Assembly (NCBI GenBank): GCA_951406725.2
Contig: OX597815.1
Location: forward strand, 196,044,001 to 196,108,000
DNA length: 64,000 nucleotides
DNA from: Octopus vulgaris
Taxonomy: Eukaryota
Direction: 5' to 3'
Below the pieces are notes generated by a model. The model did not search any database, was not told the origin of the DNA, and was given only the letters and a program-made list of their open reading frames with translations. How positions within the stretch are numbered: the stretch's first letter is position 1; every line of letters begins with the position of its first letter. The translations under genes and the position numbers were made by a program. This document shows positions 343-36,877 of this stretch, piece by piece.

Positions 343-507
343 TTCATCGTGTTTAATTCCGGATGTTATATTTTCGCATAGTAAGAGTAAACAAGAGAGA
401 CAGAGAAAGGCAGAAACAAGGAATATGTCACTTATATTTGAACACCATACAAATATTCTTTTAAAAAAACTTTTCTTTTAATTTTTCTAAATTTAATTAT
501 TTGATTG

Positions 508-548
508 TTACAGTTGAAAAAGTCTCAATGACTGAAACCGGTACTGAA
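508..548 (+). ncRNA. Minimal hammerhead ribozyme-like motif, U3-A8 core variant
   Basis: CAG-TTGAAAA-AGTC(tcaat)GACT-GAAA-CCGG-TA-CTG: stem I CAG/CTG, 4-bp stem II, palindromic stem III ACCGGT, GUA triplet; about 50 bp from a (TA)n tract. Confidence 0.6.
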
Positions 549-594
549 ATGTTTTTTATAAAATTATCTTAGCATTTTCTACCCTGACTTGTTT

Positions 595-640
<46 letters not shown>

Positions 641-759
641 CTTTATTAGCCACACAGGGTTGCACAGACACACACACACACACACACACATAGAGATACA
701 TAGATTGATGTCCAAATACGTATATAGGTATACATAGATATTTGTATACAGGTGTTTTT

Positions 760-846
760 ATGCTTATATATACGCCTGTATGTGTGTTTATATATGTATA
801 TATAAGTATGGTATGTGTGTGTTTGTATATGCATGCATATATATAC

Positions 847-932
<86 letters not shown>

Positions 933-945
933 CATACACACATAC

Positions 946-976
<31 letters not shown>

Positions 977-1045
977 TGTATATAAGTATATATATATGTA
1001 TGTATATATATATATATATATATATATACATAAATACACACATAC

Positions 1046-1083
<38 letters not shown>

Positions 1084-1100
1084 ATTTACATGTATATAGT
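760..1100. repeat. Compound (TA)n/(TG)n microsatellite
   Basis: Direct reading; source of the YI/CV-rich ORFs. Confidence 0.95.
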
Positions 1101-1481
1101 TTTCAGGTTTTTCTTCTGGGTACATTGGTCTCCATCTTTTTTACTTTTTTATGTCGTGGTATTCCCAATAGACAGATATTCCCAGTGAATGTGCAGGCTC
1201 TTATAACCTATATTTTACCTCTTTTTCTCCCCATTCAAATTAGGCACAACAGATACCGCTACAGCCGTTCATTGTGTATCTTTGCTTCGCATCTCTTGGA
1301 GCTACTCTCACATACTCTTCCCTTAAACGCGTTGACCTGATCTTTATCTCGCACTGAAGTTTCACGAATCATTGCATTATTATCTTCCCTATTCATATTT
1401 ATAAAATATAATCTCAACAAGACATATAAGTTTATATTCTGTTTTCCACGATGGAAGATGGACTTGCACGATTTTCTAGGA

Positions 1482-1835
1482 CAGTGGGTCTATTCACTTA
1501 TAAGATTCTGTTGTTGAAATTTATCTGCAGTGAATTTGTTATACTTCTACAGTACACAAAATATTTTACTAATTTTTAAAATACAATTCTTAATAATAGT
1601 CTTTTACTCTGTTATTCTTTTACTTGTTTCAGTCATTTGACTGTGGTCATGCTGGAGCACCGCCTTTAGTCGAGCAAATCGACCCCAGCACATATTCTTT
1701 GGAAGCCAAGTACTTATTCTATCGGTCTCTTTTGCCGAAACGCTAAGTTACGGGGACGTAAACACACTAGCATCGGTTGTCAAGCGATGCTGTGGGTGGG
1801 GGGCTAACACAGACACACAAACATATACACACATA

Positions 1836-1891
<56 letters not shown>

Positions 1892-2178
1892 CGACGGGCT
1901 TTTTTCAATTTCCGTTTACCAAATCCACTCACAAGGCTTTGGTCGACCCGAGGCTATAGTAGAAGACACTTGCCCAATGTGCCACGCAGTGGGACTGAAC
2001 CCGGAACCATGTGGTTGGTAAGCAAGCTAATTACCACACAGCCACTTTTACGCCTATATGCTACTTGATCATAAGAATATAATATTATAAACATTGAAGG
2101 GCTAGGAGTGTACATACAGGTAGAATAGAAATCAAAAGGTGTCAACGGGTAAAAAAAAAAAAGGGTTCAGAAACCCCG
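1482..2178. mobile_element. Degenerate hAT-type MITE interrupted by a SINE
   Basis: Interior resembles MITE 5380-5655 (aagatt.tgttgtt.aa..ttat; tacacaaaatatt); right end ggttcagaaaccccg resembles the TIR; split by SINE 1601-2056. Confidence 0.45.
1601..2056 (-). mobile_element. SINE family A (tRNA head, internal microsatellite)
   Basis: A-box TGGCTGTGTGGT, B-box GGTTCAGTCCC, internal (TA)/(TG) tract, (gtaaaaga)n tail; 11 copies in window. Confidence 0.9.
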
Positions 2179-3526
2179 TTCCAGGTGATATTCCCTTCCT
2201 TTTAATTTGCATCTTTTATAAACTATTTGCATTTGTAAACTATTTCTGATCTCTACATTTAGCAGTTATATCCTGTTATATTTTGAAATCAAACCTGAGC
2301 GAGTTCGATTTTGACTTTCATTGTTTCGTTGTCGATTAGAACAAAGCACGCACTGAAAGTACAGAACTGACGTCACTGTAATTGATTGTTTTCTCCTGTC
2401 AAAGTATGTGCAGACTTGTCCTATAAATGTTTAGAGATCGTAACAATCGCTCTTTGTTCTAAAGACTGCATTGCTAATGAATAGAGAGACTGTCGTATTT
2501 TACTCACACGCCTTATGTTTTTAAACAGGGACAATTGACACAATGAGTTAACGTTTATGTATTCCGAGGAGGTACTAGAAAAATTACAGCAAAATTCTCT
2601 TCAAACCACTCCATAGTTCTCTTAAATAAGGAGGAATGACATATAATAAAGTCATAACATGTTATATGGGAGTAGAATGCACTTTGCTTAAGAGTGAACT
2701 TTCCTTAAGTTGACATGGGGCTAAAATATAACACGAACATTAGGAACAGGAACAGTCGATTGGCACTAGAGGCGATAGAGAAAATGTCTTTCACCGTTTA
2801 TTCTTATTCAGTTCAATTTATATGCAGATTTCAAATCTAAATCCACTCACACTTTCAGTGTTGCATGTTCCATAAGTACTTCGTGTATTCAATATATTGG
2901 ATTTTACTCGTCTCCAGAGAAAATTAAGACAGTGTACATACGTTATAAACATTTATACTAACTGGAACGGATCGAAGACGAGTTACGCAAATAACATTGT
3001 ATATATCCCACGCAAAGTATTAATTTTTTCACAAAGACAAATCAATGAAAACAAAACATCGACGACAATAGAACCAAATAAGATACAGAAAACAAACTCA
3101 AATGGCATACTTTTAAATCCTCACTCCTTGCCATCCTTTCAGTGATATATTATTTCGATTTTGAAAAGATTCGATAGAAGACACTCACGTGTATGGATAT
3201 GTGTGTGCTTGCTTCTGTGTATATGCTTCTACTTCTACACGAGTGAATGGGTTTCCATGTATGCTTGTAGGTTAGCTTTTGTACATGCATCAACGTGTGC
3301 ATCGATTTAAACGTGTATGAAATCGCATCTTTTCCATTCTCCTTTTCTCTAATACCTGTCTATCTCGTTTTCTCTTTTATAACGAATGGGTCATGTTTTC
3401 AACCGAGAATTTTTGAGTGCACGATTTAGTATTTAAACCTGTATAAATAAAAGTGTAGAAATATCCGAGATCATAAAGATGCGACACTATGAAATATAAA
3501 TTTGCTATCAACTCATTTGAAATGTC

Positions 3527-3845
3527 TGTGGAGGCACATGGCCTAGTGGTTAGAAAAGCGGACTCGCAGTCGAGGAATCGCGGGTTCGAATCTCAGACCG
3601 GGCGATGTGTGTGTTTATGAGCGAAACACCTAAGCTCCACGCGGCTCTGGCAGAAGGTAATGGCGAACTTCTGTTGACTCATTCGCCACAACTTTATCTC
3701 ACTCTTTCCTCCTACATCTTGCAACTCACCTGCGACGGATCGGCGTCCCGTCCAGGTGGGGGACCTATACGCCCAGGAAACCGGGGAACCGACCCTAATG
3801 AGCCAGGCATGGCTCGAGAAGGAACAAACAAACAACAAACAAACA
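3527..3845 (+). mobile_element. SINE head C + tail 3
   Basis: ggaggcacatggcctagtggttag A-box, gggttcgaatct B-box, body shared with other C copies, (acaa)n end. Confidence 0.85.
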
Positions 3846-4597
3846 CCTGAGATGTGTTCGTGCATCCATAAATGTCATAATACATAGAAGGTCCAGAATA
3901 TGGGATATTTATTTTAGGGTATGATACAGGTATGAAATTAAAACATCTACATTGTCTTAAGGCTGGTACAAATAGCAGCCAAGCCTCCCTCAAAGCATTC
4001 ATTAGCGTTTTATAAAATGCTACATTTGGTAATGCTGTTCAGGATACAATGCTCTGGAAGAATCAGTTATGTGTTTAGAACTGGATTGGCTTGTTCATTG
4101 TTGATCGATCTGTTCTTTCAAGTCTGGTCGAGGAGAAAACAAAAAAGGACAGCAGTCACAACAGCAAAAACAAAATTTAGCACAACAATGATAAACACTA
4201 AAAATGAACCAGCACTTTACCCCGACTACACCTACTTCCTCTCTGAGCCAGTTATTAAGGGCCACAGACAGTCTGGACGGAAAATTCCTCCCCAAAGCTG
4301 AGGCTGGAACAATGTTCCGGAAGCCGCTTTTGTATAATTTCAATTGACGAAATGCAAACACAAACAGGTCGAAAGTCCAAATACATCCTATAAGTTTATT
4401 GTTTACGACTGAATGTGTACAAAACAATATGGCAGGAGAACACTACTTCTCTGTTAATCTATATTTAGATATGGTGCTTTCATTTGTTGTTCTTGGTGAT
4501 ATTAGTTATTGTGTGCTATTTTTATTGCCTAGTGGTGATGATTGTTTTAATGAGGATGATAGAAACGTTGGTGATTGGACTTAATCCCTTTGTCAAA

Positions 4598-4828
4598 GGC
4601 GGCGAGCTGGCAGAAGCGTTAGCACGTCGAGCAAAATGTATACGGGTATTTCGTCTGCCGTTACGTTCTGAGTTCAAATTCCGCCGAGGTCGACGTTGCC
4701 TTTCATCCTTTCGGGATCGATAAATTAAGTATCAGTTACGCACTGGGGTCGATGTAAACGACTTAATCCTTTTGTCTGTCCTTGTTTGTATCCTCTATAT
4801 TTATTCCCTTGTGGGCAATAAAGAAATA
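4598..4828 (+). mobile_element. SINE family B (Meta-domain SINE)
   Basis: B-box gagttcaaattcc, central gcctttcatcctttcgggatcgataaattaagta matching the Meta domain as recalled; 17-bp TSD agaaacgttggtgattg. Confidence 0.9.
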
Positions 4829-4853
4829 AGAAACGTTGGTGATTGTAATAATG

Positions 4854-5147
4854 CAAGGGTTCTCAACCATTATTTAACTGTGGATCCCTTTGATTCTTAA
4901 TTTACTTGGGTGGACCCCCATAGTCATTAGTATTGAATTTCTATAATTAATATTTTTCCAAAAGTTTACAAATAACTGTTAAAATATCTTGTGTATTTTG
5001 GACGTATAACCAGTTTATGGCACAAACTTTAATGGTCTGAAGCATAGTTTTTTCTGACCCCTGAAAGATTACCGTGGACCATAAATTTACTATATTGCAT
5101 AATTTGACCCTCAAAATGCTTATATGCACCTCGGTTGACAACCCCTG
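4854..5147. mobile_element. hAT-like MITE
   Basis: TIRs caagggttctcaacc / ggttgacaacccctg; degenerate 8-bp TSD (5/8). Confidence 0.7.
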
Positions 5148-5379
5148 CATTAGTGTATGCGGTGTGAACGTCAAAGAGAAAGAAATCCACCTGGTATGCA
5201 TGCGCTTTCAAGTTTGGCCCTACGGCATGATATTTACTAAGATAAATTCAAGTGACCCCCACCAAGACTTTATGGTGAAACTGATTGACGGATACTGTGA
5301 AAACTTTTTACATGGATTGTACCTATAATTTGGAGCTTCTGTCTTGGCACGTATTTTGACAAGTTCATTCGGCTAGGGC

Positions 5380-5655
5380 TGTGATTCTCAACCGGGATCA
5401 ACATGACCCTTGCAGGTCTATAGAAGATTTTGTTGTTAAAGATTTATGCACAATAAATTGGTTATATTTCTATTTACACAAAATATTTATCGACCCACAA
5501 AATATTTTAACAATTTATTTTTATACAATTCATAATAATATTTGATTATAAAAACGTAATGGGAGATTTTTTTAAAGATCAAATGTTTATACGGGTCCAT
5601 CAGAGCGAAACAGCAATCAAAGGCTCTTTAGGAAAAATATGGCTGAGAACCAACG
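5380..5655. mobile_element. hAT-like MITE (degenerate)
   Basis: TIRs ctgtgattctcaacc / ggctgagaaccaacg. Confidence 0.6.
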
Positions 5656-6195
5656 GACTTCAGGAATACGTTAACGATCACCTGTCTGTAGAATACTCAC
5701 CCACTTACACATTAATTTAACACGAAACCAGTTCAGCTGACCTGACAACTGGACGCTGATTGGTTAAAACTGGAGGAGGAATCAGAATTAATGCTTACGG
5801 TATGAGTAGTGGTGATAGTTTGTTTTGGTGTCGAAAGAAGTATTAGTTGAAGATATGTGGGAAATGGAGTGTCTGTATAATAACTGATAAGCGTGATATT
5901 GATTTCATAAACATAACACTAGATAATTTTAGAGGGAGGTATTATAATCGATTGGTTCGATTCAAGTGCTTGATTAATGCTTATTTCATCGATCTTGGAC
6001 GGCTTGAAAGGAAAAAGTCTTTAACCGACACCTCTAATTATTGCAGGAAATGTGTCACAAAATCCTGTTTTATCATTATACTAAGCACAAACTATAAGAG
6101 TACTTCACCACTTCAAAGAGAAATGTGTATTGTATCTTATATTGTTCCATAAAAATAAAGTGTCGACAATATATGTGTCCGTGTGTTTGTGTATG

Positions 6196-6226
<31 letters not shown>

Positions 6227-7392
6227 GCATAACTACATATATATCTATATACATATATATACATGCATAACTACATATATATCTATATATATATTTATAT
6301 ATACACATACATATGCATATCTCTCTATATATATATCTATATATATATTTATATATACACATACATATGCATATCTCTCTATATATATACACACATACAT
6401 ATGCATATCTATCTATCTATCTATATATATACACACAAATATGCATATATGTATGTATATATATATATATAAATATATACATACATACATACATATATGC
6501 ATCTATGTATGTATACTTATACATTAGAATGAAAGGGATAATGTTATTGGTATTTGATTGGAACTTTATTTATTGACCACAAAATAACGGAAATCAAATT
6601 CACTGCCACTATAAACATCACCAGTAGAAACATGACCCACCAGAATTACCAAAACCACCAACATCAACACCAACACCACCAGCATAATGACCATCGTTAC
6701 CTCCTTGCCAACCGTCACAACCAAGGTCAGAACCACAACGGTCAAGTTACGTCTACCACCGTCTAACTTCTACCACCACCACCACCATCACTACTGCCGC
6801 CACCACTATCACCACCACCGCAATCCTCAGTAGCACAATCAGCATCATCAAAATGAACACCACAGCACCAACGCCAGGTCCACCACCGTCACCACCACCA
6901 CCACCACAAGCACGCAACCGACATTAATTTGGCAACGTTCCTGCTTACCACTCTGCAATACTAGACGATAGAATATATGCATGTATATTAATTTCTAAAC
7001 AAATGAACGAACCAAAGAGTTTATTATATGGGAATATTTGCAATATTTAGAATATGTTGTGGTTTTGGGACACAAACTAACATTTCACTAGAAGCATAAA
7101 ACATACTGGAAGTCTTCCAGGCACTATTCTACACAACACCGCACTGTATTACACTCCATTGCGCTGCAATACACTTCGATGCATTACACTAGACTACCCT
7201 GCATTATACTGCGTTTCATTATCCTATACCACAGATATATCAGTCTTGAGACCCCACACAACATCTTAACGACTTTGGAGTTCAACAGCTTAAGACAACA
7301 AACAATACATACTTTAATAAAAAAAACGCACTCACACATACAGACACACATGTATGTATTTATACATATATGTATGTATATTTATATATATA

Positions 7393-7423
<31 letters not shown>

Positions 7424-7620
7424 GCATATATATATGTGTATATATATGCATATTTATATATGTGTATATATATGTGTCTACATATACGTATATATGTGTA
7501 TGTATATGTAAATGGCAACATATACGTATCTATCTATGTATATCTATTTATATTTATATTATATATATTATATATATATATATGCTTATATATGTGTATA
7601 TGTATATATGTGTTTGTATG

Positions 7621-7657
<37 letters not shown>

Positions 7658-7660
<3 letters not shown>

Positions 7661-8036
7661 CGAATTAGTGGCTGTGTGGTAAGTAGTTGCTTACCGACCA
7701 CATGGTTCCGGGTTCATTCCCACTGCGTGACACTTTGGGCAAGTGTCTTCTACTATAGCGTCGGGCCGACCAAAGCCTTGTGAGTGGATTTAGTTGATGG
7801 AAACTGAAAGAAGCCCGTCGTATATATGTATATATGTATATATATGTGTGTGTGTGTATATATTTGTGCGTCTGTCTTTGTCCCCAACCATCTCTTGACA
7901 ACCGATGTTGGTGTGATTACATCCCCGTAACATAGCGATTCAACAAGTAAGACTAATAGAATAAGTACTAGGCTTACAAAGAATAAGTCCTGGGGTCGAT
8001 TTGCTTGACTAAAGGCAGTGCTCCAGCATGACCGCA
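7658..8036 (+). mobile_element. SINE family A
   Basis: Homologous to 1601-2056; 3' truncated. Confidence 0.9.
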
Positions 8037-8862
8037 CCACTTATTTTCACTTATATATCACCTATTTTCGCCATGATCTCTGCCAGTATCACCAGTAGTA
8101 CATTATGATCATAACCACCAAACCTTCATCACCAGCAGGATTGCTTTCACCGCTTATACCACCACTGATCTAACCATTATTTTACCCACTCCCTCTTTTC
8201 TCTTCTTTTTTTCTTTTCTTTAATCAACTATACCACTGAGCCCGCATCACAGAGTAGACTTTTCATCACTAGCCAGACTGCTCTCACCATTGCCTTCTTA
8301 CCATCACCATCTCGAATCAACAACTTCTCTTCCATCTCCATCAAATATCAATAAACCGCTGTTAAACTACCACCGTTTACACAGCAGTATTACCTTGAAT
8401 AAGCACCAGCCATGCTAGCAACAAAGCCACCAACATAGTTATCAGCACTAGACTATCATCGCCACTACCATCACCACTACCATCAACACCACTGCCGCCG
8501 CCGCAGCCCTCATTGCCGCCAAAAGCATCATAGCCGTCTCCAGCAATTTCGATTTCATCTCTTATCCTTATACACGAATACTTGTTCTGATGTCGCCCAC
8601 ACCATAACCACAACAGCAGCAACAACAACAACAATAATAGTCACCACAGCCACCACAGCCCGCACGCACCATTATTTTCTTCCCTCAATATCACCAATAC
8701 CCTATCAACAACTGCTTCACAAACACCATACTAACAACAACAACGGCAATTGTTTTCTATGGAGCAATCAATTGAACCAGCTAATAATAAAATTCAGCAA
8801 CCATGACAATACAAATCGCCGAGAACAACAGGCAACGAGTCACTACTACTACCACCACCACA

Positions 8863-8907
<45 letters not shown>

Positions 8908-9339
8908 GCCGCTGCTGCTGCTGCTGCTAATTGTACTGTTCATTACACAATCTCCGGCAATGGCATCAGTTCGAGGCAACACGGAAGTTTCTACGTGCTA
9001 AATCGACCTGCTGGAAATAACAGCTACATTTTCCTCTCTAAGAAGACGACTGAATGAATAGTCATGGTTCGAATGCTTTTGATATTTAGGCTTTTATCAA
9101 TCAGATTTGAACTGGATCTAAATGCAAACAGCTATAACCATAGCAACAACCACCACTGTCTGAATCTGTCCCGCCAAGTAGCCAGTTATAACACAAATAG
9201 TACAAATGCCAACGACACCAACGGACAACAAAACTACCGAGAATGAGAACAAAAACAGATCCAATATTAAGAAACATCAACAATAAAAATCATGTTAAAA
9301 ATAATCCTGTCTACTACGGAGACAAGGTCAGAAATTTGA

Positions 9340-9516
9340 GGGAAGGGGCTACTGGATTACATTGACCCTAGTGTACAACTGGTACGTATTTCATCGACTC
9401 CGAAAGGATGAAAAGCAAAGTCGATCTCGGCGGAATTTGAACTCAGAACCTAGCGACAGATTAAATGTTGCTAAACATTTTCTCCAGCGTGCAAAGAATT
9501 CTGCCAGCACGCCGCT
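9340..9516 (-). mobile_element. Older diverged Meta-domain SINE
   Basis: cgaaaggatgaaaagcaaagtcgatctcggcggaatttgaactcagaac. Confidence 0.75.
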
Positions 9517-9537
9517 TTTAGTCATGTTAATAATAGT

Positions 9538-9816
9538 TTATTTATGCGCCCTTTTCAACCCTAGCCAGGCTCATGGGCCCGGTTTTCCCGGTTTCTATGG
9601 CGTATGTGTTCCCCCCAGCTGGACGGGACGCCAGTCCATCGCAGCGTTACTCAAGAAACAGAAAGAAAGAGTGAGAGAAATTTGGGGCGAAAGAGTACAA
9701 CAGGGGTCACCAACACCCCCTGCCGGTGCCTCGTGGAGCCTTACGTGTTTTCACTCAATAAACACACACAACACCCGGTCTGGGAATCGAAACCGCTGGG
9801 CCATTGCGCCTCCACA
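9538..9816 (-). mobile_element. SINE head C + tail 4 (deletion in head)
   Basis: Head ggaggcgcaatggcccag; tail gtaacgctgcgatggactggcgtcccgtccagctgg shared with 12517-13020. Confidence 0.85.
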
Positions 9817-10855
9817 TTTATGGGAAAGGGCTAATAGTTAATAATAATACTTGCTTTTTAAGCTAAGTCAAGGTCTGAAGTTTGAGGTAGGGGAATAGTA
9901 ACTAGATTCATACCAGTAATTGACTGATACTTGATTTCATCGAACCCGGCAAGATACTCTGTTTTCTCTTCACCCCGAGCGGATAAATCTTTCGCCTTTT
10001 ACTAAAGATAAAAATGCAAAGCTGCTTTTGGTGGGTTTTCATCTTGGAAAGCAAAGAGCTAGAATAAATGCCGTGATACATTTAATCCGATTCTCTGACG
10101 ATTCACAACCCTAACATTTACAGTGGTTTAAAATTTGGGCTCAAAGTCAGTTTACTGGATAAGTTGATAACATCGAAGCCAGTAGTTGATCGCTATTTTA
10201 AACTAGTGATAAGATTGTCGACCTTGTGTCTAAATCAGAAGTTATTATGTTATGATCTTGGATTTCGCTGAAAGATAATGTTGTTTGGAGCATAAAAGTT
10301 GATCTCGTTTCATCATGTGAAAGATTTAGGTGGTATCTTCTATATAGTTCCAGAGTGATTGTTCAAAAAAGTTAACGCAGGAACGTTAAGGATTTCGCTT
10401 AATTTTTCGCTTTCATTCCAGAGTTTGAAAAATGTTGCATATATCAAAGTGAATTTTAAGAACGAGTTAACCTTAAAGAAGAAACAAAAAAAATGTAGAA
10501 ACAATACTGAAGAAAATGGGACTAGAGAGGATAATTTAGTGAAAGGAAAAAAAGTGAAAAAAAAGAAACGGTGAAAGAAAATATAAAGAATAAGTAAAAA
10601 CGTAGAACGTTAGAAGAATAGGAGAAAAGGACAAAGAATATGGAGGACAAGAAAAGGCACGTGAAAAATATCATAGGAAAGAATAAAAGGATGGATGGCA
10701 GAAAAAAGGATAAAAACGCACGTGATTGATTGATATGTTCGAAAACCAAAACACTTTAAATAAACAAGAACAAAACAAATTTTGCATGGTAGGAGAAATG
10801 TATTCTGTTAGTGACCATCCCGTTTTCGTTCATTCAATAAAATATTAGTATGTCT

Positions 10856-11181
10856 TGTGAAGGCGCGTGGCTTAGTGGTTAGGGCATTCGACTGACGATT
10901 GTAAGGTCGTGAGTTCGATTCCCGGCGATGCGTTGTGTCCTTGAGCAAGACACTTTATTTCACGTTGCTCCAGTCCACTCAGCTGGCAAAAATGAGCTGT
11001 ACCTGTATTTCAAAGGGCCGGCCTTGTCACACTCTGTGTCACGCTGAATCTCCCTGAGAACTACGTTAGGGGTACACGTGTCTGTGGATTGCTCAGTCAC
11101 TTGCACGTTAATTCCACGAGCAAGCTGTTCCGTTGATCGTATCAGCTGGGACCCTCGTCGTCGTAACCGACAGAGTGCTCC
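10856..11181 (+). mobile_element. SINE head D (CORE-like) + tail 1
   Basis: tRNA boxes, gtgtccttgagcaagacactttatttcacgttgctccagtccactcagctg CORE-like segment; TSD agtatgtctt. Confidence 0.85.
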
Positions 11182-11299
11182 TTTAAGTATGTCTTAGACT
11201 ATATTATTGAATTTGCACTTTCATATATTCCTCGAATATTATGCTCGTGATTTGAGATATGCCTTTAACAAATCGCATCACTATGTAAAGACTCGAAAA

Positions 11300-11530
11300 G
11301 GCGGCGAGCTGGCAGAAACGTTAGCACGCCGGGTGAAATGCGTAGCTGTATTTTCCCTGTCGTTACGTTCCGAGTTCAAATTACGCCGAGGTCGACTTTG
11401 CTTTTCATCCTTTCGGGGTCGATAAATTAAGTACCAGTTACGCACTGGGGTCGATGTGATCGACTTAATCCCTTTCTCTGTCCTTGTTTGTCCCCTCTAT
11501 GTTTAGCCCCTTGTGGGCAGTAAAGAAATA
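11300..11530 (+). mobile_element. SINE family B (Meta-domain)
   Basis: Full monomer; 15-bp TSD tatgtaaagactcga. Confidence 0.9.
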
Positions 11531-12516
11531 TATGTAAAGACTCGATTAAGTTTCCACTCAGAAAATAGTATTACAGTCATTTAAATGTTTTTGAGACACC
11601 AGTAAAAGTGGTCCATCACCACAGAAGAAATACCAGCCTAATTTCGCTCAGATTTACCCTTGTGTCATAAAAACCCCCCCAAATAAATAACACTCTATAC
11701 GGCTAAAATGACTTTGGTCTCAGGTCAATTTTGTCAGATTTGGCCAAGAGTTAAACAAGAACTCAGTTCTTAGTGCTACGCAGAACCAAAACGGAAAGGA
11801 TCTATATGGTTGCTTGACCTGACTGATATAAATTGCAATCAAATCGCTTTTAAGTCACACATGAACATCTTAATAAAGCATGGATATAATCTATAATAAA
11901 TCCTAGCAGCATTATGCCTAAAGAGAAAAGAGGAGCTGATCACATTTCAAACGCCTTTGATCATGGATCTCCTCATTAACTCTGATATGGAACTAGAGAA
12001 AAACAAGTGAAGTATATTTATGTTTGAAACATCTATCGTATCACTGATGGCAGAATAAATTATCTTTACGAATAAAGGAATTCAATTATTTTGCTTTTAC
12101 AAGTTGTTATTATGCTGCAATTGTGCAATGAGAATTGCATTCATTAAACTAATTTTAAAACGCTACCGTAGGTTACTTGGTATGTATCTAGATTTAATAG
12201 GTTTAAAAATCTTAAAAATCTTATCTTGTTTCATTTTAAAATAATGTTTTCAATATATGAGAATTTTCAAACATGAAAAAAATGATAAAATATGCCTCCA
12301 TCTTGCTATCGAATGCTACTTAGAGGATGTACCAGCAGCATCACTAGCAGCATCACCAACAGTATCCAGCTTTGAGAGCCAGACATTAATTAAAATGAAA
12401 TAAATGAATCCAAAAATCACAATTCTGTATTATATATGGTTTATATAGCAAGTTCTCTAATACAAGAATCTTCCGCATAAAACGAGTTGTATATCACTTC
12501 ATATTAATAATAATAA

Positions 12517-13020
12517 TAAATGCACCCTTTTAAAGCCTAGCCAGTCTCATGGGCCCGGTTTCCTCGGTTTCTATGGCGTATATGTTCCCCAGCTGGATGG
12601 GACGCCAGTCCATCGCAGCGTTACTCATTTTTGCCAGCTGAGTGGACTGGAGCAACGTGAAATGAAGTGTTTTGCTCAAGAACACAACGCGCCGCCCGGT
12701 CCAGGAATCGAAACCACAATCTTATGATCATGATGCTGACACCCTAACCACTAAGCCACGCGCCTCCTAAATGCACCCTTTTAAAGCCTAGCCAGTCTCA
12801 TGGGCCCGGTTTCCCGGTTTCTATGGCGTATGTGTTCTCCAGCTGGATGGGACGCCAGTCCATCGCAGCGTTACTCATTTTTGCGAGCTGAGTAGACTGG
12901 AGCAACGTGAAATGAAGTGTTTTGCTCAAGAACACAATGCGCCGCCCGGTCCAGGAATCGAAACCACAATCTTATGATCATGATGCTGACACCCTAACCA
13001 CTAAGCCACGCGCCTCCACA
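12517..13020 (-). mobile_element. Tandem dimer of SINE head D + tail 4
   Basis: Two near-identical ~251-bp units (12517-12767, 12768-13020) inside one degenerate TSD. Confidence 0.9.
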
Positions 13021-13314
13021 TATGTCATTTCATACTAAGATAATATTTTTACATATATCAGCAGAAGACATGATTTGGCAATCCATTCCATTGCCAACCA
13101 ACACTACCAAATCTTAAGTTAACATTGATCAGGTTTCCCTTAATGTAGCAGTTATTGCGGCTTGCATGTACAGAAAAATAAGCAGAATTTGCTTGTACGT
13201 AAGCGGCTGAACTAAATAGTATATAGCTATTAGTTTTGGCAATTGTTTATGACGATTGATTTTACTCTCCCGGGCGAAGACATCAGGCAACAGGTTACTA
13301 CCACTAATACGACC

Positions 13315-13370
13315 AACTACTACTACTACTACTACCACCACCACCACCACCATTACTACTGCTGCTGCTA

Positions 13371-13422
<52 letters not shown>

Positions 13423-13425
13423 CAT

Positions 13426-13461
<36 letters not shown>

Positions 13462-13464
13462 CAT

Positions 13465-13548
<84 letters not shown>
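13315..13548. repeat. (ACT)n/(ACC)n trinucleotide microsatellite
   Basis: Direct reading; gives poly-T/V/Y ORFs. Confidence 0.95.
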
Positions 13549-13804
13549 AGCCTTCTTTATAACGTTGATCATTGCTATATCACAACTCCCTCGCCGCTGC
13601 TATTACCATCACAAATAATTGTTCCTAATTTAGGTGCAGCAGTTTTTTTTTTTGGGTTAAAAAGACACCACGAAATGGCATTTAAAGCTGACCATAGCGT
13701 AATTTTATAATCAGACTGTGCGGAGCCGGAACACATATAGTTAAGGAGCTTATTTACATGCTGACAATTCTTCCTTCAGTGTATTACACAAGCTATATCA
13801 GTAG

Positions 13805-14119
13805 TGTGGAGGCGCAATGGCCCAGTGGTTAGGGCAGCGGACTCGCGGTCGAAGGATCGCAGTTTCGATTCCCAGACCGGGCGATGTGAGTGTTTTTTGA
13901 ACAAAAACACATAAAGCTCCACGAGGACCCTACAGGGGGTGGTAGCGAACCCTGCTGTTTCTCTTTCGCCACAACTTTCTCTCACTCTTTCTTCTGTTGG
14001 CCTGCTCGCTTAGCCAGCGGGGTGGCGTCATTTGAAGGCTAAGACTATGCGAAGCGCATTGTGACCAGCGATGCGTAACAACATATGATAGCCTGGTCCG
14101 TCACGGTGATCACGGTGAT
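13805..14119 (+). mobile_element. SINE head C + tail 2 (RTE-derived tail)
   Basis: TSD atatcagtagt; tail matches 3' end of RTE fragment 42111-42430. Confidence 0.9.
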
Positions 14120-14556
14120 ATCAGTAGTAGTTTTCTTTAATACTCATACGGACACACGCATGCAGTACAAAATATGTTATCCAAAAATAAAGGCACCTAC
14201 AAAAAGCAATGGGGGAGGTTCGTGCATGTAATAGAAAGGTACTCGGTCATAAATGTAACAAAGGTTAAAATCAAATACATACAAATAAATAAGAGCACCC
14301 AGTTAATGCAGAAACTATTTAGGATCAAGTTGTATTAGAATGAGAATACATATTCTCACGAATTTGAGGACTTTATGTTCCTCACACAAGGAAACTACGA
14401 GGATTCTGTTTCCTAAGTTTGATTAGAGGATTTCTATATATATATTTGCCCTTTTCCGGTAATCGTTTCCATGTTCCACTTCCAGTATCATCACTATTAT
14501 ATATGTTCACTATTATATATATATAATATACACTTCTTAACGAAATCATAACAATA

Positions 14557-14605
14557 TTTTGAGAAATTTGAAAAGTTAAACACGAAACCGGTAATTTCTT
14601 CAAAA
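14557..14605 (+). ncRNA. Minimal hammerhead-like motif, U3-A8 core variant
   Basis: GAAAT-TTGAAAA-GT(taaac)AC-GAAA-CCGG-TA-ATTTC; stem I extends with a bulge (ttttgagaaat/atttcttcaaaa). Confidence 0.6.
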
Positions 14606-14756
14606 ACTATGTCACTGTATGAAAAGAATTTATAACATTTTTCTGACATAATGACTCAAATATATATTTTTTAACCTTTTAAAACAAGCCTTCTGTAGTT
14701 TTTTCACTTTTTACGATTTTCTATATATTCAACCACGTGCTTTCATATATATATAT

Positions 14757-14917
14757 GAGAAGGTTTGGAGATGATGTACAGGTATCATATACAAGAAGAA
14801 ATGAGGTACTCAGAATTCCGGATGGTTTTATACTTATACATATTTATTAGTATGCTATATATTTTTATACATCATATATCATATATTAACGATTTCGTCC
14901 ATTCCAGTGGAATCATC
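14757..14917 (-). mobile_element. (TA)n-flanked short element with 5'-truncated hammerhead
   Basis: Homologous to 18420-18600 (aaggtttggagatgatgtacaggtat...gaggtactcagaa); minus strand GATGA-tTCCA..TGGAc-GAAA-TCGTTA. Confidence 0.6.
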
Positions 14918-14923
14918 TATCTA

Positions 14924-14973
<50 letters not shown>

Positions 14974-15106
14974 CTGTGTGTGTACATGTGTGTGATCCAT
15001 GAGTGTGGGAGTGACATTTTCGGTTATAAAAGTTTTGTCTGTGAGCATTCTGTACCTCCGATTAAATTGATTGCAATAATTTGCTTTACACACACACACA
15101 AACACA

Positions 15107-15164
<58 letters not shown>

Positions 15165-15277
15165 CATATATAAATCACACATGTCTAATCGAATGTCAGC
15201 AGAAACAGAGAGAGCAAGGAATAGAGAGATGGCTATATTATGTGCATGATTTTACACGAAAATTCTTTCATTATTTT

Positions 15278-15429
15278 ATTTGACTGTAGCCATGCTGGAG
15301 CACCGCCTTTAGTCGAACAAATCGACCCCATGATTTATTCTTTGTAAGCCTAGTACTCATTCTACCGGTCTCTTTTCTATCCCCACAACCGATAGTGGGG
15401 GACAAACACACATACACATACACACACAT

Positions 15430-15460
<31 letters not shown>

Positions 15461-15618
15461 CATATACGACGGGCTTCTTTCAGTTTCCGTCTACCAAATC
15501 CACTCACAAGGCGTTGCTCGGCACGAGGCTATAGTAGAAGACCCTTGCCCAAGGTACAACGCACTGAGACTGAAACCCGTCGGAACCATGTGGTTACCAC
15601 ACAGCTACTCCTGCGCCT
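15278..15618 (-). mobile_element. SINE family A (internal deletions)
   Basis: Homology to other A copies. Confidence 0.9.
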
Positions 15619-15924
15619 ATATAAGAAATATTTAAATATATTTGAGAATGTGTCTAAAAACAAAAAAATAGAGTGTACCACTATTGGTTTCAAATTTTGT
15701 CACAAAGCCTGCAATATCACCAGTTAATCCATGACATCGACTCTAGTGCAGAACTGGCACTCGTTTTATCGACCACGAAAAGAAAAATCGACATTGGCGG
15801 AATATGAATTTAGAACCCAAAAACCGAGACGATGCTGCTAAGCAGCCTGCCTGGCACGCTACCGATTTTGCCAGATCACCGTCATGGGGGGTAATTAGTA
15901 TTAGTCAAATAGACTAGTCAAAAA

Positions 15925-16523
15925 GGCGGCAAGCTGGCAGAAACGTTAGCACGCCGGGCGAAATGCTTAGCGGTATTTCGTCTGCCGCTACGTTCTGAGT
16001 TCAAATTCCGCCGAGGTCGACTTTGCCTTTCATCCTTTCGGGGTCGATAAATTAAGTACCAGTTACGGACTGGGGTCGATATAATCGACTTAATACGTTT
16101 GTCTGTCCTTGTTCGTCCCCTCTGTGTTTAGCCCCTTGTGGGTAGTAAAGAAATAGGTATTTCGTCTGCCGCTACGTTCTGAGTTCAAATTCCGCCGAGG
16201 TCGACTTTGCTTTTCATCCTCTCGGGGTCGATAAATTAAGTACCAGTTACTCACTGGGGTCGATATAATCGACTTAATCCGTTTGTCTGTCCTTGTTCGT
16301 CCCCTCTGTGTTTAGCCCCTTGTGGGTAGTAAAGAAATAGGTATTTCGTCTGCCGATACGTTCTGAGTTCAAATTCCGCCGAGGTCGACTTTGCCTTTCA
16401 TCCTTTCGGGGTCGATAAATTAAGTACCAGTTACTCACTGGGGTCGATGTAATCAACTTAATCCGTTTGTCTGTCCTTGTTTGTCCCCTCTGTGTCTAGA
16501 CACTTGTGGGTAGTAAAGAAATA
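15925..16523 (+). mobile_element. Meta-domain SINE trimer
   Basis: One head plus three ~184-bp units; TSD agtattagtcaaatagac. Confidence 0.92.
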
Positions 16524-17000
16524 AGTATTAGTCAAATAGACGAGTCGATTGTATCTATTAAAATTCGGTGGAATCCTGGCTTGACAAACCGTATCGCTGA
16601 AACTTTGAAGTTGCTCTGTAACTCGTGGTCATCCCGATTTATTGGAGATTTTGCCCATTTTTCAATATGCTATAATTATGGTGGTAGGTTGTAGGATGTG
16701 AAAGATTTGACAGTTAAAACTATCAGGTTTTTGTTACGAAGAGTCAGGTTTTGCCTGATTGATAACGACTATGGTTTAAAGTTTTTTTTATTCAATGCCA
16801 CCCCATATTTTTCTTAAATATAGTTGAGTGATTTCGGCTGCTAATTTCTGATTCTCCAGAGATCGACTAAAACTATAACATTTGCTATAAATTAGGAAAG
16901 TTTGTAAGGAACTTGTAAAAATTGCAAAAATACTGTCGAAGGAAATAAAGTTGGGTTTATATACTGACAGAAAGATATATACACACAGGAAACTAGTGAA

Positions 17001-17031
<31 letters not shown>

Positions 17032-17480
17032 CATACATACATAGACAGACAGACAGACAGACAGACAGAGAGAAAGAGAGAGAGGCAGGTAATGAGTTAT
17101 GTTCTGCTTCAGAAGACGCAAAATTTGTCGAGAATACAAAGCATTCATGTCATTCCGCCCTTATAGATTACAAAACCATATACTCACCAAGTTTTCTTGA
17201 CTATTTAACGCATGCCTTCACACTAACACAAAGATACGCACGCACACACACACACACTCTCTCTCACACACACGAACACAAACATAAACACAAATGCTAA
17301 CACGGATATACATGCAACATTACAGTTGCTTTCCAAAACATGGATTGTTTGAATTGATTGCTGGAGGACATATTCCAAGAATATACTCACAGGAATATAC
17401 ATATGAGGTGTTACACATACACGCAGACATATGTATATATGTGTGTATGTGTGTGTGTGTGTATAAGTCTTTTTTTTAAA

Positions 17481-17869
17481 ACTTGTTTCAGTCATTTGAC
17501 TTTGGCCATGCTGGAGCACCGCCTTTAGTCGAGCAAATCGAACCCAGGACTTATTCTTTGCAAGTCTAGTACTTATTCTATATGTCTCTTTCGCGGAACC
17601 GCTAAGTTACGGGGACGTAAACACACCAGCATTGGTTGTCAAGCGATGTTAGGGGGACAAAGACACACAAACATATACACACACACACATACATACATAT
17701 ATATACGGCGGGCTTCTTTCAATTTCCACCTACCAAATCCACTCACAAGGCATTGGTCGGTCCGAGGCTATAGTAGAAGACACTTGCCGAAGGTGCCACG
17801 CAGTGAGACTGAACCCGGTACCATGTGGTTGGTAAGCAAACTTCTTACCACACAGCCACTCCTGCGCCT
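17481..17869 (-). mobile_element. SINE family A
   Basis: Homology to other A copies. Confidence 0.9.
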
Positions 17870-18317
17870 AGTTATATATACATAGATATAACATAATAAA
17901 AATAGTAATAATATTAATAACAGATAATATATATGCATATATGGGTACAGGACGTCACGAACTGTGCAAACAACATGAAATACGTAAATGAGTTAAATAA
18001 GTAAACAACGGAAAAATGGAAAACAGGACAAGTAAACAAAGAGAAAGGATACTTCATAAGTTGTCAGCTGTCTATCTACTCCACATTTCAAGCATTCAAC
18101 GACAATATGAATCTTCAAAGACAATTGCTCCACTGAATTCTAAAATAAGATATCAGGATTTATGGAGGGTCAAAATTTGGGAACAAAAGCAGGACAGTGG
18201 AGACATACAGACAGGGAAACCGAACCGAAACAAACTTTGAGGATCGTTAGACCAGAGCGAGAAGAAAATAGTGAACGCTGGGCATAGTATTTTCTTTGAA
18301 AAGAGAAATGATAGAAG

Positions 18318-18361
<44 letters not shown>

Positions 18362-18419
18362 CGCTTGACCACTACAAACTCAATACCACTATAAAATGGT
18401 CAAAACTTTTCACACAGGA

Positions 18420-18600
18420 ACTTAATTTGATTTGAAAACCCCACTAGAATGGGAGAAAGCGCTAATACATGATCTAAGTTATATGATGTATAAAAAATGT
18501 AATATACAAATAAATATCTGTAAAATATAAACCATCCGATTTTCTGAGTACCTCATTTCTTCTAATATAAAATACCTGTACATCATCTCCAAACCTTATA
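18420..18600 (+). mobile_element. (TA)n-flanked short element with U3-A8 hammerhead-like motif (18428-18469)
   Basis: AT-TTGAAAA-cCCCA(ctagaa)TGGGa-GAAA-GCGC-TA-AT; palindromic stem III AGCGCT; weak stem I. Confidence 0.55.
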
Positions 18601-19162
18601 TATATATATATCACAAACATATTACACAAGGTATATCCAAGGATCTCACAAAGATAGATTTTGCATAGAACCAGCCAAATAAAGAACCATGCATATTTTG
18701 CAATGAAATCGTAAATACTTTTCACTCACTAAGCTCCGTACTTAACAACACACTCAGGTCAGGTCTATTATGTGTCATTCATTAAGCTGGCTTACATTTT
18801 ATTTCATTTATTTATCTATTTTGGCTTTTTACCTATTTCGTCACTCACATGATCATTCTCGGTATTTGCAAGATAAGCATCAAAGGCTGTAGCAAAAGAT
18901 TTCACGATTTATTATTTTTTTCTTTTTGCTTTTTCATTCAACATAAGTTTCAAACTTAAATTCTCTAAGTTTAGAACTGATGTAGTTCGTGGCGTACCAC
19001 TGTTGATAGACAAAACTATGTGTTAGACATCGTTTCTGTTGTAAAAATACATTAGTTAAATAACTACCGTAACTTAATAACTCTATGTGAGGATCGACAT
19101 AGGTTTAAAAAAAAATACCTGTAGATTTAGAATAGTCCCACTTCACAAGCGCAAATTTAAAT

Positions 19163-24192: not shown

Positions 24193-24972
24193 AGACACAC
24201 TGATACACATATACACACGCACATACATACATATATATGACTCATACACTGTGTAATTTTCTTAGAGATCGGAAGAAATCTAAGAACTGTTATGTAACCA
24301 CGATGTTGATGTTTGCATTGTTTGTGTTGTTGTTGCTCTCGTTGTTGTTCTCAGCTTCTTTTTAAGCTATCATTCAACAGCGATCGAACATGCAGCTCAG
24401 TGATCAAAGGACTTCGATCCTTTATTCCATGGCATGAACTATGTAAAGAGCAGAATACATTACATAATGTGACCTCATTTTTTTTTTTGTTTTTGTTTCA
24501 TTCATGTAGCGTGTACATTAATATGTAGGCGGGTGATGAATTGATGACAATTTGACAGTTATTTTTAGCGGGTCTCCGAGGCGGAGCAGAATGGGAGGAA
24601 TTTATCATGAAACCGGAAACACGTTTTCAATGCTTCGCGGCGAATGGAATCTCAAAAACAGGCATCGAGGGTGCTAAGCAGTGATGTTAATCCAGGAAAC
24701 GGATTAAGTTAATTTAGTTTCAGTTTTAATGATTTTGCTGTAACTATATTTAGTTTGACATATTTCTTTCTTCCTATGATTTTTTTCTCAGCCTCTGAAC
24801 TGACCCTGATCGACCACACGTAGGATCAAAATATGTACAATTCAACTTCACTAATATTCACATTTTTGTACAAAATATCATTTATACCTGACTACATGAT
24901 GTAATGTGCTCAAAGGTGTAGTTTGAGAGAAATTTGAATGCGCTTTGTAAGAAGGTGATGTGACTACTTTCT

Positions 24973-25571
24973 TATTTCTTTACTGCCCACAAGGGGCTAA
25001 ACACAGAGGGGACAAAAAAGGACAGACAAACGGATGAAGTCGATTATATCTACCTCAGTGCGTAACTGGTATTTAATTTATCGACCTCGAAAGGATGAAA
25101 GGCAAAGTCGACCTCAGCGGAATTTGAACTCAGAACGTAACGGCAGACGTAATACCTATTTCTTTACTACCCACATGGGGCTAAACACAGAGAAGACAAA
25201 CAATAACAGACAAACGGATTAAGTCGATTATATCGACCCCAGTGCGTAACTGGTACTTATTTAATAGACCCCGAAAGAATGAAAGGCAAAGTCGACCTCG
25301 GCGGAATTTGAACTCAGAACGTAGCGTCAGACGAAATACCTATTTCTTTATTACCCACAAGGGGCTAAACATAGAGGGGACAAACATGGACAGACATAGG
25401 TATTAAGTCGATTATATCGACCCCAGTGCTTAACTGGTACTTAATTTATCGACCCCGAAAGGATGAAAGGCAAAGTCGACCTCGGCGGAATTTGAACTCA
25501 CAACGTAACGGCAGCCGAAATACCGCTCAGGATTTCGCCCGGCGTGCTAACGATTCGGCCAGCTCGCCGCC
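24973..25571 (-). mobile_element. Meta-domain SINE trimer
   Basis: Same unit and junction as 15925-16523; TSD atgtgactRctttct. Confidence 0.9.
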
Positions 25572-26919
25572 TTCATGTGACTGCTTTCTGGCTTGCTCTG
25601 GTAACAAGAGATGGCGTTGTTTAATGGAACTTCATCAAAATTGAACAGATGTATGATTAAATATATTACCACTGTTACTACACTACACAGTCATCTCTCT
25701 CTTCTCTTTTCACATGGTGCTCTTCGCCTTCCAAGAACGTAGCATGTGATTTGAGTGAAAATTTGAGCGACCAAACAAGGAGCTCCCCCGTCTTCACTGC
25801 TGCATAATGGTTTATATCGTTAATGCTGTTGTTGTTGTTGATCGTGCTGCTACTGCTTCTGTTTAACTGCAGCTGACACTTGAGTCATAAGACCTATGAC
25901 CAAATGTATTTCAAGCATGGCCAAACCTGTTTTTTTTAAAGGTTGCCTCGGAGTAAACTATTTCACGTGACCCTCTTTTATTTGCCTATTTATTTTTTCT
26001 ATTTATTTATGTATTTATTTATTTGAAAACAATAATGGTTGATTTGGGTCTTATTTGGTTTACCATATCTAACAAATCGAGCAATCACATAACGACCTGC
26101 ATGCTGGCACGTGATCATTTCATAGTTTAAAACTAGGTCATCTCTGACAGAAAAGCGATAGGATCAAAAGCTTTTCATTCATTCATAAACATCACATATT
26201 TTTACCTATGTGAGTGAATCTAGGACAGCTTTAGCTAACATCCCCTTTTCTAATACGGAAGTGTGTAATTTAGGCGAGGTTTGGTTGCCATTTCTTGCAA
26301 TTCGAGCGACAACATCGTGGCGTTTATGTTGCCTCGCCTTGATAATAGAGCTTGCTGCGTTACAATGAGGTAGGATAGGGAATAGAAGCAGAGATTAACA
26401 GGAAAATTTGCTGTGATGATAGTGGTCGGCATTCTTATTGATCTTTAGACTGGTAGTAATGATAGTGCCAATAGTAAACCTGAAATAATAATCGATAATC
26501 GGCAGTGGAGCGTGATTGCTTTGAAAAAAAAAAAAAAAAAAAATTTTTTAAAAAAAGCAAACAACAAATCTCTTCTCGCTTCATTGAATGTTTATTTATA
26601 CCGCGTGTTGCCATTGTTAGAATACTAATGTGTGTGTGTGTGTGTGGTATCTCTTTGATTTTATGCATCCATTGCCTATATAGGCAACTACACATACACA
26701 TGCACAAACACGTACACGCATAAAACACCCACACACCTATGTGCGTGTGTTTGTATTTGTATATATATATTATATATATCTTTAGGCCATCAAATCTTCA
26801 CAGTTATAAAGGCTCCTCGTGAAATACAGCATGTCGTCTACATTGTAAGCCTAAATTCATCCCCTACGTATCTGTTCGAGGCTATTTCTTCCATAGACAA
26901 TGCGGAAGTAAGCCAGAGA

Positions 26920-32449: not shown

Positions 32450-32615
32450 ATATTTTCTCTCCTTTTTCTCTCTCCTTGTTTTTTTCTCTCCTTGTTTTTT
32501 CTGTGTACCTTTCTGTAGAAGAGCGTAGGCTCGAAATGTAAATGACGTTTTCTCTTCCTGAGCGTTTTGTACACCACCTGTCTTCGTCTTTTGGTTTTTT
32601 GTAAACTTTCCCTAT
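32450..32615 (+). mobile_element. Short TA-adjacent element with degenerate HHR (32508-32545)
   Basis: ctttCTGTAGAaGAGC(gtag)GCTCGAAAtgta; homologous to 49500-49690. Confidence 0.6.
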
Positions 32616-32619
32616 ATAT

Positions 32620-32679
<60 letters not shown>

Positions 32680-32741
32680 CTGTAGTTTCAGCTCATAGCT
32701 GCTGCCATGCTGATTCACCGCCGTTAACGTAAAGACAAACA

Positions 32742-32978
32742 AAATACCTATTTCTTTACTACCCACAAGGGGCTAAACACAGAGGGGACAAACAAGGACA
32801 GACAAACGAATTAAGTCGATTATATCGACCCCAATGCGTAACTGGTACTTATTTAATCAACCGCGAACGGATGAAAGGGAAAGTCGACCACGGTGGAATT
32901 TGAACTCAGAACGTAACGGCAGACGAAATACGGCTACGCATTTCGCCCGGCGTGCTAACGTTTCTGCCAGCTCGCCGC
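32742..32978 (-). mobile_element. Meta-domain SINE plus start of a second unit
   Basis: Ends gaaatag-gtattt, the multimer junction. Confidence 0.9.
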
Positions 32979-34045
32979 TTTTATATGTGTGTATTTGTAT
33001 GTATGTAAGTTTTATGTGAATATGTTTTAACGTATGTATGTAACTGAATGCATACCCATTATTTTGATTTCATAAGTTAACAAGAAAACCTATCATTTTG
33101 TCATAGCTTTCATTGACAGTTGATATTCAGTTATTATATTCATTTGGAAGTCAGTTGAAGCAATTGTTACCACCCAATGTCTCAACGAAGTCTATGTCGT
33201 GATAACAAAACAAATAAATAAACAAAAATAAATTAATAAATAGTAACAAATAAACTAATATTTTAAGTGAAGTAATTACACTATTAAGTATAATTACTTT
33301 TATGTGTGTTTATATACAAACCTCAAGTAAACACCAAGAAAATCACAAGGAAAATTGATTTATTTCACCAGCATTTCAAGATTTAAAAAGATCTTACTTG
33401 TAGTGTGTTCACGTTATACAACAAGTGCACGGAAACATGGAAAGACTTAAGGCCAAATAAGAAATTTTTAAGTGAAAGAAATGTTGAAGTAATCATACTG
33501 ATGTGCCAAATATTGTTTCATGCAATGTTGCAGCCGTCAGATTTATAAAGGGGAAATAAAATATAGCGGTTTGTGTTTTGATTTTATTTTTTTCCTAAAG
33601 GTTAATTACCTAATTTTACGGAAATATTGGTTCAAGTAGTTACAGACGTCCGACCGCGGGTCGTATCACGACATCACGATTTCTGAAATTAGATGTTTGT
33701 GTGACTGAAGTCATTACGCCACTCCACGTTTCCTATTACAACACTCACCAAGCGGAGACTAAACCACTTTGCAGAAATGGTCTGCATTTAGAAAGTCTTG
33801 TATACACACATACACACATACACGTGTGTGTATATGTGTCTACATTTGTAGGCACATGCATATTTATGTGCATGTGTATACACACATAGATATGTTATGT
33901 ATAAAAACAATTTAACGTTAAACAGAAAGATAACTCAATACTTTTGAGAGAGAAAACATGTTTATTTAACTTTTACAAGTTTTTGGAAGACAGTGACTTC
34001 GAAGTTTCTGCTTGCTAGATTTCACTGGACTATTCATCTATCTCT

Positions 34046-36249: not shown

Positions 36250-36877
36250 GGGTGGAGTAAGTTGACTACATCGAGCCCAGTGCTCAACTGGTACTCATTT
36301 CATGTACCCCGAGAGGATGAGATATAAAGTCGAACTGCGTAGGATTTGAACTCTGAATGTCAAGAGCCGATTGAAATGCTGTTAATAACTTTGTCCGACG
36401 CGCTAATGATTCTGCAATTTTGTCGCCATAATGATAATCTTTTCTACTATAGGCACAACGCCCATAAGGGGCTAAACATAGCGGGGGCAAACAAGGACAG
36501 GCAAGCGGATTAAGTCGATTATATCGACCTCAGTGCGTAACTGGTACTTATTTAATCGACCCCAAAAGGACGAAAGGCTAAGTTGATCTCGGTGGAATTT
36601 GAACTCAGAGCGTAACAGCGGACGAAATACCTATTTCTTTACTACCCACAAGGGGCTAAACACAGAATGGACAAACAAGGGCAGACAAACGGATTAAGTC
36701 GATTATGTCTACCCCAGTGCGTAACTGGTACTTATTTAATCGACCCCAAAAGGACGAAAGGCTAAGTTGATCTCGGTGGAATTTGAACTCAGAACGTAAC
36801 AGCGGACGAAATACCTATTTCTTTACTACCCACAAGGGGCTAAACACAGAAGGGACAAACAAGGACAGTCGATTATA
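36250..36877 (-). mobile_element. Old Meta SINE plus headless Meta-SINE multimer (36465-36877)
   Basis: Two repeats of the gaaatacctatttc junction. Confidence 0.85.

Follow-up and report, generated by a model that had tools for sequence, protein, structure and literature searches.

Three short motifs in a 64,000-nucleotide stretch of the Octopus vulgaris genome (contig OX597815.1 of assembly GCA_951406725.2, positions 196,044,001 to 196,108,000 of the forward strand; below, the window, whose first letter is position 1) have the architecture of minimal type I hammerhead ribozymes in which the canonical C3-G8 pair of the core is exchanged for U3-A8. The reading that we favour, with a probability of roughly two in three, is that they are hammerheads in solo terminal-repeat (pLTR) remnants of three U3-A8 families of Penelope-like elements, and that selection on the parent elements likely maintained the exchange, as it preserves the 3-8 base pair and would leave weak self-cleavage as a dimer possible.

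The heptamer TTGAAAA stands on the + strand at 514-520 (site 1), 14568-14574 (site 2) and 18432-18438 (site 3), exactly where the original prediction had placed it, and stem I is distinct at each site, as was also claimed. Downstream of each heptamer come a short stem II, GAAA, a 4-nt palindrome (CCGG at sites 1 and 2, GCGC at site 3) and TA; this is how minimal type I hammerheads whose helix III is palindromic are laid out. The core, helix II, GAAA and NUH triplet that characterize such motifs (PMC4209133) are present at all three sites in the U3-A8 form. The site 1 motif (511..546, + strand) consists of stem I at 511-513/544-546 (3 bp), the core at 514-520 with U3 and A8, stem II at 521-524/530-533 (4 bp), GAAA at 534-537 and the palindrome at 537-542, with predicted cleavage after A543. 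At site 2 (14557..14605, + strand), stem I is longer (14557-14567/14594-14605, 6 bp, a bulge and 5 bp) and stem II is only 2 bp (14575-14576/14582-14583), followed by GAAA at 14584-14587 and the palindrome at 14587-14592, with predicted cleavage after A14593. Site 3 (18419..18480, + strand) failed the strict descriptor and was recovered only by a relaxed listing of GAAA-palindrome-TH; its helix I closure is weak (a proximal 2 bp at 18430-18431/18465-18466 and a distal 6 bp at 18419-18424/18475-18480), and its stem II (18440-18443/18450-18453, 4 bp) carries a C18439.A18454 mismatch at 10.1-11.1, with GAAA at 18455-18458, the palindrome at 18458-18463 and predicted cleavage after A18464. All cleavage positions follow from standard hammerhead numbering. 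Minimal motifs usually, though not necessarily, have a G10.1-C11.1 pair and one more base between positions 9 and 10.1 (PMC4209133). The 10.1-11.1 pair is G-C at site 2 and A-U at site 1 (G-C in sister copies), and in place of the site 3 mismatch a few copies of that family have G-C; sites 1 and 2 show no clear extra base between 9 and 10.1. The 6-nt palindromes form self-duplexes of -8.3 kcal/mol each, and an intermolecular helix III appears in two-copy folds. A second U3-A8-like heptamer, at 14559-14565, precedes the site 2 core by 9 nt and lacks matching stems in that register; it is part of a short duplication present in the related copies L021, L030 and L049.

Chance matches in AT-rich DNA were considered as a source of the motifs. 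The bare heptamer occurs 28 times in the window and is uninformative alone, the stems are short, and Rfam covariance models, run at E up to 10 on the three site regions, gave 8, 3 and 2 matches, among them no hammerhead family; in a scan of the whole window, no hammerhead stood among the 150 of 308 matches listed, which were microsatellite matches, almost all to microRNA models. The complete frame TTGANAA-N7-25-GAAA-palindrome-TH is, however, found four times in the window (the three sites and the second register at 14559), whereas across 200 block-wise dinucleotide shuffles the mean was 0.165 and the maximum 2, so that none reached four. Genome counts stand about 100-fold above reversed-pattern controls, and the position beside Penelope-type open reading frames (ORFs) recurs. 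On these three grounds, chance was rejected, and its probability is practically nil.

The three window motifs lie in terminal-repeat fragments of 215-245 nt, each from a different Penelope-like family. The family A fragment (383..608, + strand) is set between (TA)n runs and is 90% identical over 228 nt to L130, a locus in which another repeat copy lies downstream of reverse transcriptase (RT) and GIY-YIG ORFs. The family B fragment (14536..14749, + strand) shares 90% identity over 214 nt with L025, in which the C-terminal coding region of an element lies upstream of the repeat; copies of this family lie about 140 nt past the ORF end (L132, L025), and RT is found in L132 and L136. The family C fragment (18368..18611, + strand) likewise lies between (TA)n runs. 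Its identity to each of the 39 further full-length matches that were scored is 96-99%, and direct repeats of this family flank the RT coding region in L128, where they are 5 kb apart, and in L133. The RT domain (PF00078) adjoins families A, B, C and D; for GIY-YIG (PF01541), the match came from family A. Homologues numbered 744 proteins at E up to 1e-20, with RT in most and GIY-YIG in about half of the 120 listed. The placement in pLTRs of RT/GIY-YIG elements described for such motifs (PMC4209133) is therefore seen through family copies (L130 for A, L132 and L136 for B, L128 and L133 for C). The 64-kb window itself encodes no Penelope-element protein; thus, the three copies are lone remnants and probably inert. 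No Penelope-type coding region was found within 3.2 kb upstream of the sampled copies of families G, H, J, K and C' and of most of family I, and the link of these families to elements is therefore putative. Within families, stem II varies in a compensatory manner (A-U, G-C or G-U at 10.1-11.1 in A; C-G or U-A at 10.2-11.2 in B), and a family C 24-mer that extends from stem II as far as the cleavage site is matched exactly 1,028 times in the genome (control 0).

The core census covered the whole genome (2.8 Gb in 227 contigs) with the descriptor core-N{7,25}-GAAACCGGTH and its GCGC version; the census is confined to these two palindromes and made no demand on stem pairing, and the count of the reversed pattern is given in brackets as the control. 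For CCGG, there were 11,580 U3-A8 (95), 372 C3-G8 (43), 429 U3-G8 (50) and 333 C3-A8 (54) matches. For GCGC, there were 2,408 U3-A8 (26) and 355 U3-G8 (10) matches, together with 462 (22) that combine C3 with A or G at position 8; A8 was present in 19 of the first 100 of the latter by hand count, which gives about 370 C3-G8 and about 90 C3-A8. Over the two palindromes, U3-A8 thus amounts to at least 13,988 descriptor matches and about 95% of paired cores, about 20 to 1 over the canonical form, which bears out the expectation of an abundant variant-core lineage; that canonical searches would miss it also proved correct, as the Rfam hammerhead models miss all three sites.

These numbers bear on whether the cores are C3-G8 hammerheads that decayed by C-to-T and G-to-A changes after insertion. 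Both changes are common AT-ward transitions, and the window copies differ from their relatives by 3-10%. Doubly changed cores, however, exceed each single-change core 7- to 35-fold and exceed C3-G8 as well, so that decay after insertion is excluded, in line with the outcome of the genome-wide count of the four cores that the original prediction had proposed; as an account of the window cores, such decay is very improbable. Hand counts of the first 100 matches agree: the U3-A8 CCGG matches comprised 43 of family A, 25 of family B and close relatives, 28 of family D and 4 others, family A contributed 14 of the U3-G8 and 22 of the C3-A8 matches, and C3-G8 versions of family A were essentially absent from the first 100 C3-G8 matches. 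Scaled up, single-change cores of family A come to about 1% each of its U3-A8 count, which is an ordinary level of copy decay, and the site-3 family has the same core in 28 of the 29 motif rows printed. U3-A8 is therefore an inherited family state, not copy decay. That the C3-A8 matches form one real family was rejected, because a chance match in ORF2 of a long interspersed nuclear element (LINE) accounts for 23 of the first 100; this commonest C3-A8 descriptor match (L059, L062, L065) lies inside an endonuclease-RT frame and has no stem II.

How often the exchange arose was judged from RT trees, the rows of which were assembled from tblastn pieces, with several long branches and uncertain deep nodes. 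Families A and B group with D, a third U3-A8 family, with support of 100/100 in a 20-row tree and 0.98 in a 34-row FastTree tree, and form an unresolved grade in the 34-row IQ-TREE tree. For family C, the partner is a C3-G8 family from this genome (94/96 in the 20-row tree and 98/92 in the 34-row IQ-TREE tree). Forcing A, B, C and D together was not rejected (AU p = 0.139). Sites 1 and 2 thus probably share one U3-A8 origin, and the window holds one or two such origins, not the three independent hammerheads that had been supposed.

Related RT genes from other sources were sampled at 91 loci on metagenome and genome contigs, 35 of which had a motif. Among 27 distinct motifs on the coding strand, 23 were C3-G8, 4 were U3-A8 and none was mixed (Fisher p = 5.7e-5, relatedness ignored); this count excludes duplicate motifs, the weak minus-strand U3-A8 motifs L196 and L246, and the minus-strand C3-G8 motifs L248 and L240 (the latter a duplicate of L220). 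The outside U3-A8 motifs are scattered on the tree, with 7 state changes on 34 rows. The Penelope-type RT genes L270-L280, several with hammerheads, sit on short contigs of bacterial metagenome-assembled genomes and are likely eukaryotic contamination.

The relative of the site-3 element was originally thought to provide a contrast, with G8 and a different stem III at 14885-14917. This piece belongs to a truncated pLTR fragment (14744..14917, - strand) of subfamily C', the sister of the site-3 family, which is about 80% identical to the site-3 element over 174 nt and 90% identical to L171. It retains stem II and GAAA, its palindrome and core are damaged, and the exact 18-mer of its stem II occurs only twice in the genome. 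The sequence does read ..GATGA; however, a (GATA)n run has overwritten the core, so that its G8 cannot count as clean evidence. A canonical C3-G8 sister was rejected, as intact copies of the subfamily are U3-G8 or U3-A8.

The reading that competes most directly with selection on the pair is that the motifs are Penelope hammerheads under weak or non-catalytic constraint, in which U3-A8 came from AT-biased drift in a few successful parents and cleavage is slow or dispensable. We regard it as unlikely, but a number of observations weigh against selection as the cause. A U3-G8 subfamily of B makes up 53 of the first 100 U3-G8 CCGG matches (hand count), and one of its members, L136, has an uninterrupted frame of 775 codons with an RT domain beside a U3-G8 core. 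Subfamily C' is largely U3-G8. Mismatched C3-A8 cores have likewise multiplied in a retrozyme subfamily arranged in a 360-nt tandem (L189; 11 of the first 100 C3-A8 matches) and in family K (L177-L182; 7 of the first 100), which is small and diverged and shows the C3-A8 mismatch consistently, although its stems I and II are good; no Penelope-type coding region was found upstream of it on the same strand. The commonest, most amplified form of family C lacks the G10.1-C11.1 pair. Copy counts stem from a handful of families and do not represent independent events, and on supported branches of the outside tree there are only four independent pairs, on average 3.9 of them concordant (p = 0.125), too few for significance. 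U3 cores of outside elements lie in AT-richer flanks (4 vs 23 loci, Mann-Whitney p = 0.02). Minimal motifs and swaps other than G-C have low activity in vitro; in a deep mutagenesis of a type III ribozyme, activity was rescued by the G-C swap only (PMC9901934). Naiad elements, moreover, spread without any hammerhead (10.1101/2021.04.23.441226).

Weak constraint accords less well with the preservation of the other core positions, the palindrome and NUH across families that are only 40-55% identical in protein, or with the absence of mixed cores among the 27 outside motifs. The link of U3 with AT-rich flanks has exceptions in this genome, namely AT-rich C3-G8 families (E2, with a flank GC of 0.25) and the U3-A8 family J, which is GC-rich (0.48). 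Of the first 100 C3-A8 matches, moreover, the 23 in the LINE are no hammerheads. The claim that the double change is selected covariation stands in so far as single-change cores are far rarer and mixed cores are absent outside; it does not stand as a strict rule, since U3-G8 and small C3-A8 subfamilies have multiplied, and the pairing constraint is not strict. Selection on the 3-8 pair looks real over long times and loose over short ones.

The proposed course of events is as follows. In a tandem element, two pLTR hammerheads on one transcript may pair through their 6-nt palindromes to form helix III, as the two-copy folds suggest; by analogy with the published dimer model, the paired hammerheads would then cut after the A of the NUH triplet and trim the element RNA. 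Self-cleavage of the U3-A8 motifs is accordingly predicted to be weak and to take place as a dimer. Tolerance of 3-8 swaps depends on context. The swap itself would have arisen a few times in parent elements, probably by way of a tolerated U.G wobble and favoured by AT-rich sequence. More tentatively, the whole compensatory path, from C3-G8 through U3-G8 to U3-A8, might be represented in living families, with the wobble as a viable stepping stone. The U3-G8 subfamily of B is nested among U3-A8 copies (support 81-85), and its young, full-length-looking elements L129, L135 and L136 carry the wobble hammerhead and are 97-99% alike in protein.

The importance of these findings is modest. They add another animal genome in which censuses of hammerheads by CUGANGA or by Rfam models undercount Penelope ribozymes, here more than tenfold for the two palindromes counted. 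Sister subfamilies whose main difference is at position 8 (U-A vs U.G) offer natural material on the role of weak ribozymes in Penelope elements. If the wobble were indeed a stepping stone, standard models would fail to see the majority of hammerheads in this genome, and near-identical natural pairs would allow one to measure how much cleavage a Penelope element needs.

Some further observations concern these families and the window. At 480-513, and likewise in L001-L003 and L130 of family A, a tract rich in pyrimidines runs up to the core and ends in CAG. It resembles a 3' splice site that would overlap helix I, an idea that rests on analogy with an intron in Drosophila virilis (PMC4209133). 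No splice joint at this place was found in contigs of four runs presumed to be RNA; the only two joints listed lie elsewhere and are not GT-AG. Two related segments, 42441-42600 and 42721-42880, lie inverted about 120 nt apart and have GAAA-palindrome motifs and no hammerhead core. The window is rich in microsatellites, which dominate the output of the repeat finder, and contains dispersed copies of a repeat that has a period of 184 nt within it (24971-25652, 15919-16530, 32577-33060, 36460-36943 and 50796-51110); they occur in both orientations, and the closest are 88-95% alike. Elsewhere in the genome, a retrozyme-like tandem family (L035-L041; G000:C1:20002278-20004542) repeats about every 359 nt, and its core is the canonical C3-G8. 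A subfamily with a longer loop II (L189; G000:C4:80857199-80857949) has the C3-A8 mismatch in tandem copies, and L175 and L176 combine a similar stem II with a U3-A8 core.

Known hammerheads place these motifs in a familiar setting. The variant core is not new: U3-A8 covariation in Penelope-element hammerheads was described in 2014 (PMC4209133) for the Cercyon elements of Schistosoma mansoni, with about 1,300 matches to a dedicated descriptor, weak dimer cleavage of a minimal motif and, in the supplement, one listed motif with the UUGAAAA core. The dimer model, in which two pLTR motifs join by their palindromes and cut after NUH, is set out in passages of that paper and of PMC6765202. Only the host, the dominance of U3-A8 and the wobble subfamilies are new here; the variant, its context and the proposed dimer mechanism are already in print. 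No title on this motif stood among the matches listed for the literature on hammerheads in Octopus, a scope that leaves aside Lunse, Weinberg and Breaker (RNA Biol 14:1499), whose work possibly covers these families. The octopus motifs resemble those of S. mansoni, as the relevant passages present them, in being type I minimal motifs in pLTRs with a short palindromic helix III, U3-A8 and the UUGAAAA string, and in occurring mostly as single dispersed copies, with opposite-strand pairs a few hundred bases apart. They differ in that U3-A8 is the smaller class in S. mansoni (about 1,300 vs about 2,000 canonical) and makes up about 95% of paired cores here, for two palindromes. The octopus motifs also have a shorter stem II, of 2-4 bp, and at sites 1 and 2 no clear unpaired base stands between 9 and 10.1. 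Both mollusc species in the supplementary passages are canonical, and "Octopus" has no match in supplementary file 2 (a statement that extends to that file and not to file 1). Natural cores in which the 3-8 pair has covaried to U-A were also reported in 2011 as active in vitro in the portions of PMC3088659 used here; they are rare variants there, whereas in the retroelement repeats studied here U-A is the family norm. The small variants of Lunse and colleagues, as summarized in part in PMC6765202, cleave as dimers and share the diminished palindromic stem III and the association with Penelope-like retrotransposons; for the window motifs, dimeric cleavage is a prediction. Finally, the non-LTR retrozymes of animals (10.64898/2026.07.22.740005, in the passages seen) are likewise type I hammerheads derived from Penelope pLTRs and are arranged as tandem repeats. 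The window motifs are, in contrast, lone pLTR fragments, with one motif per site, 4-14 kb apart and from different families, and the retrozyme family of this genome (L035-L041) is separate from them and has a canonical core.

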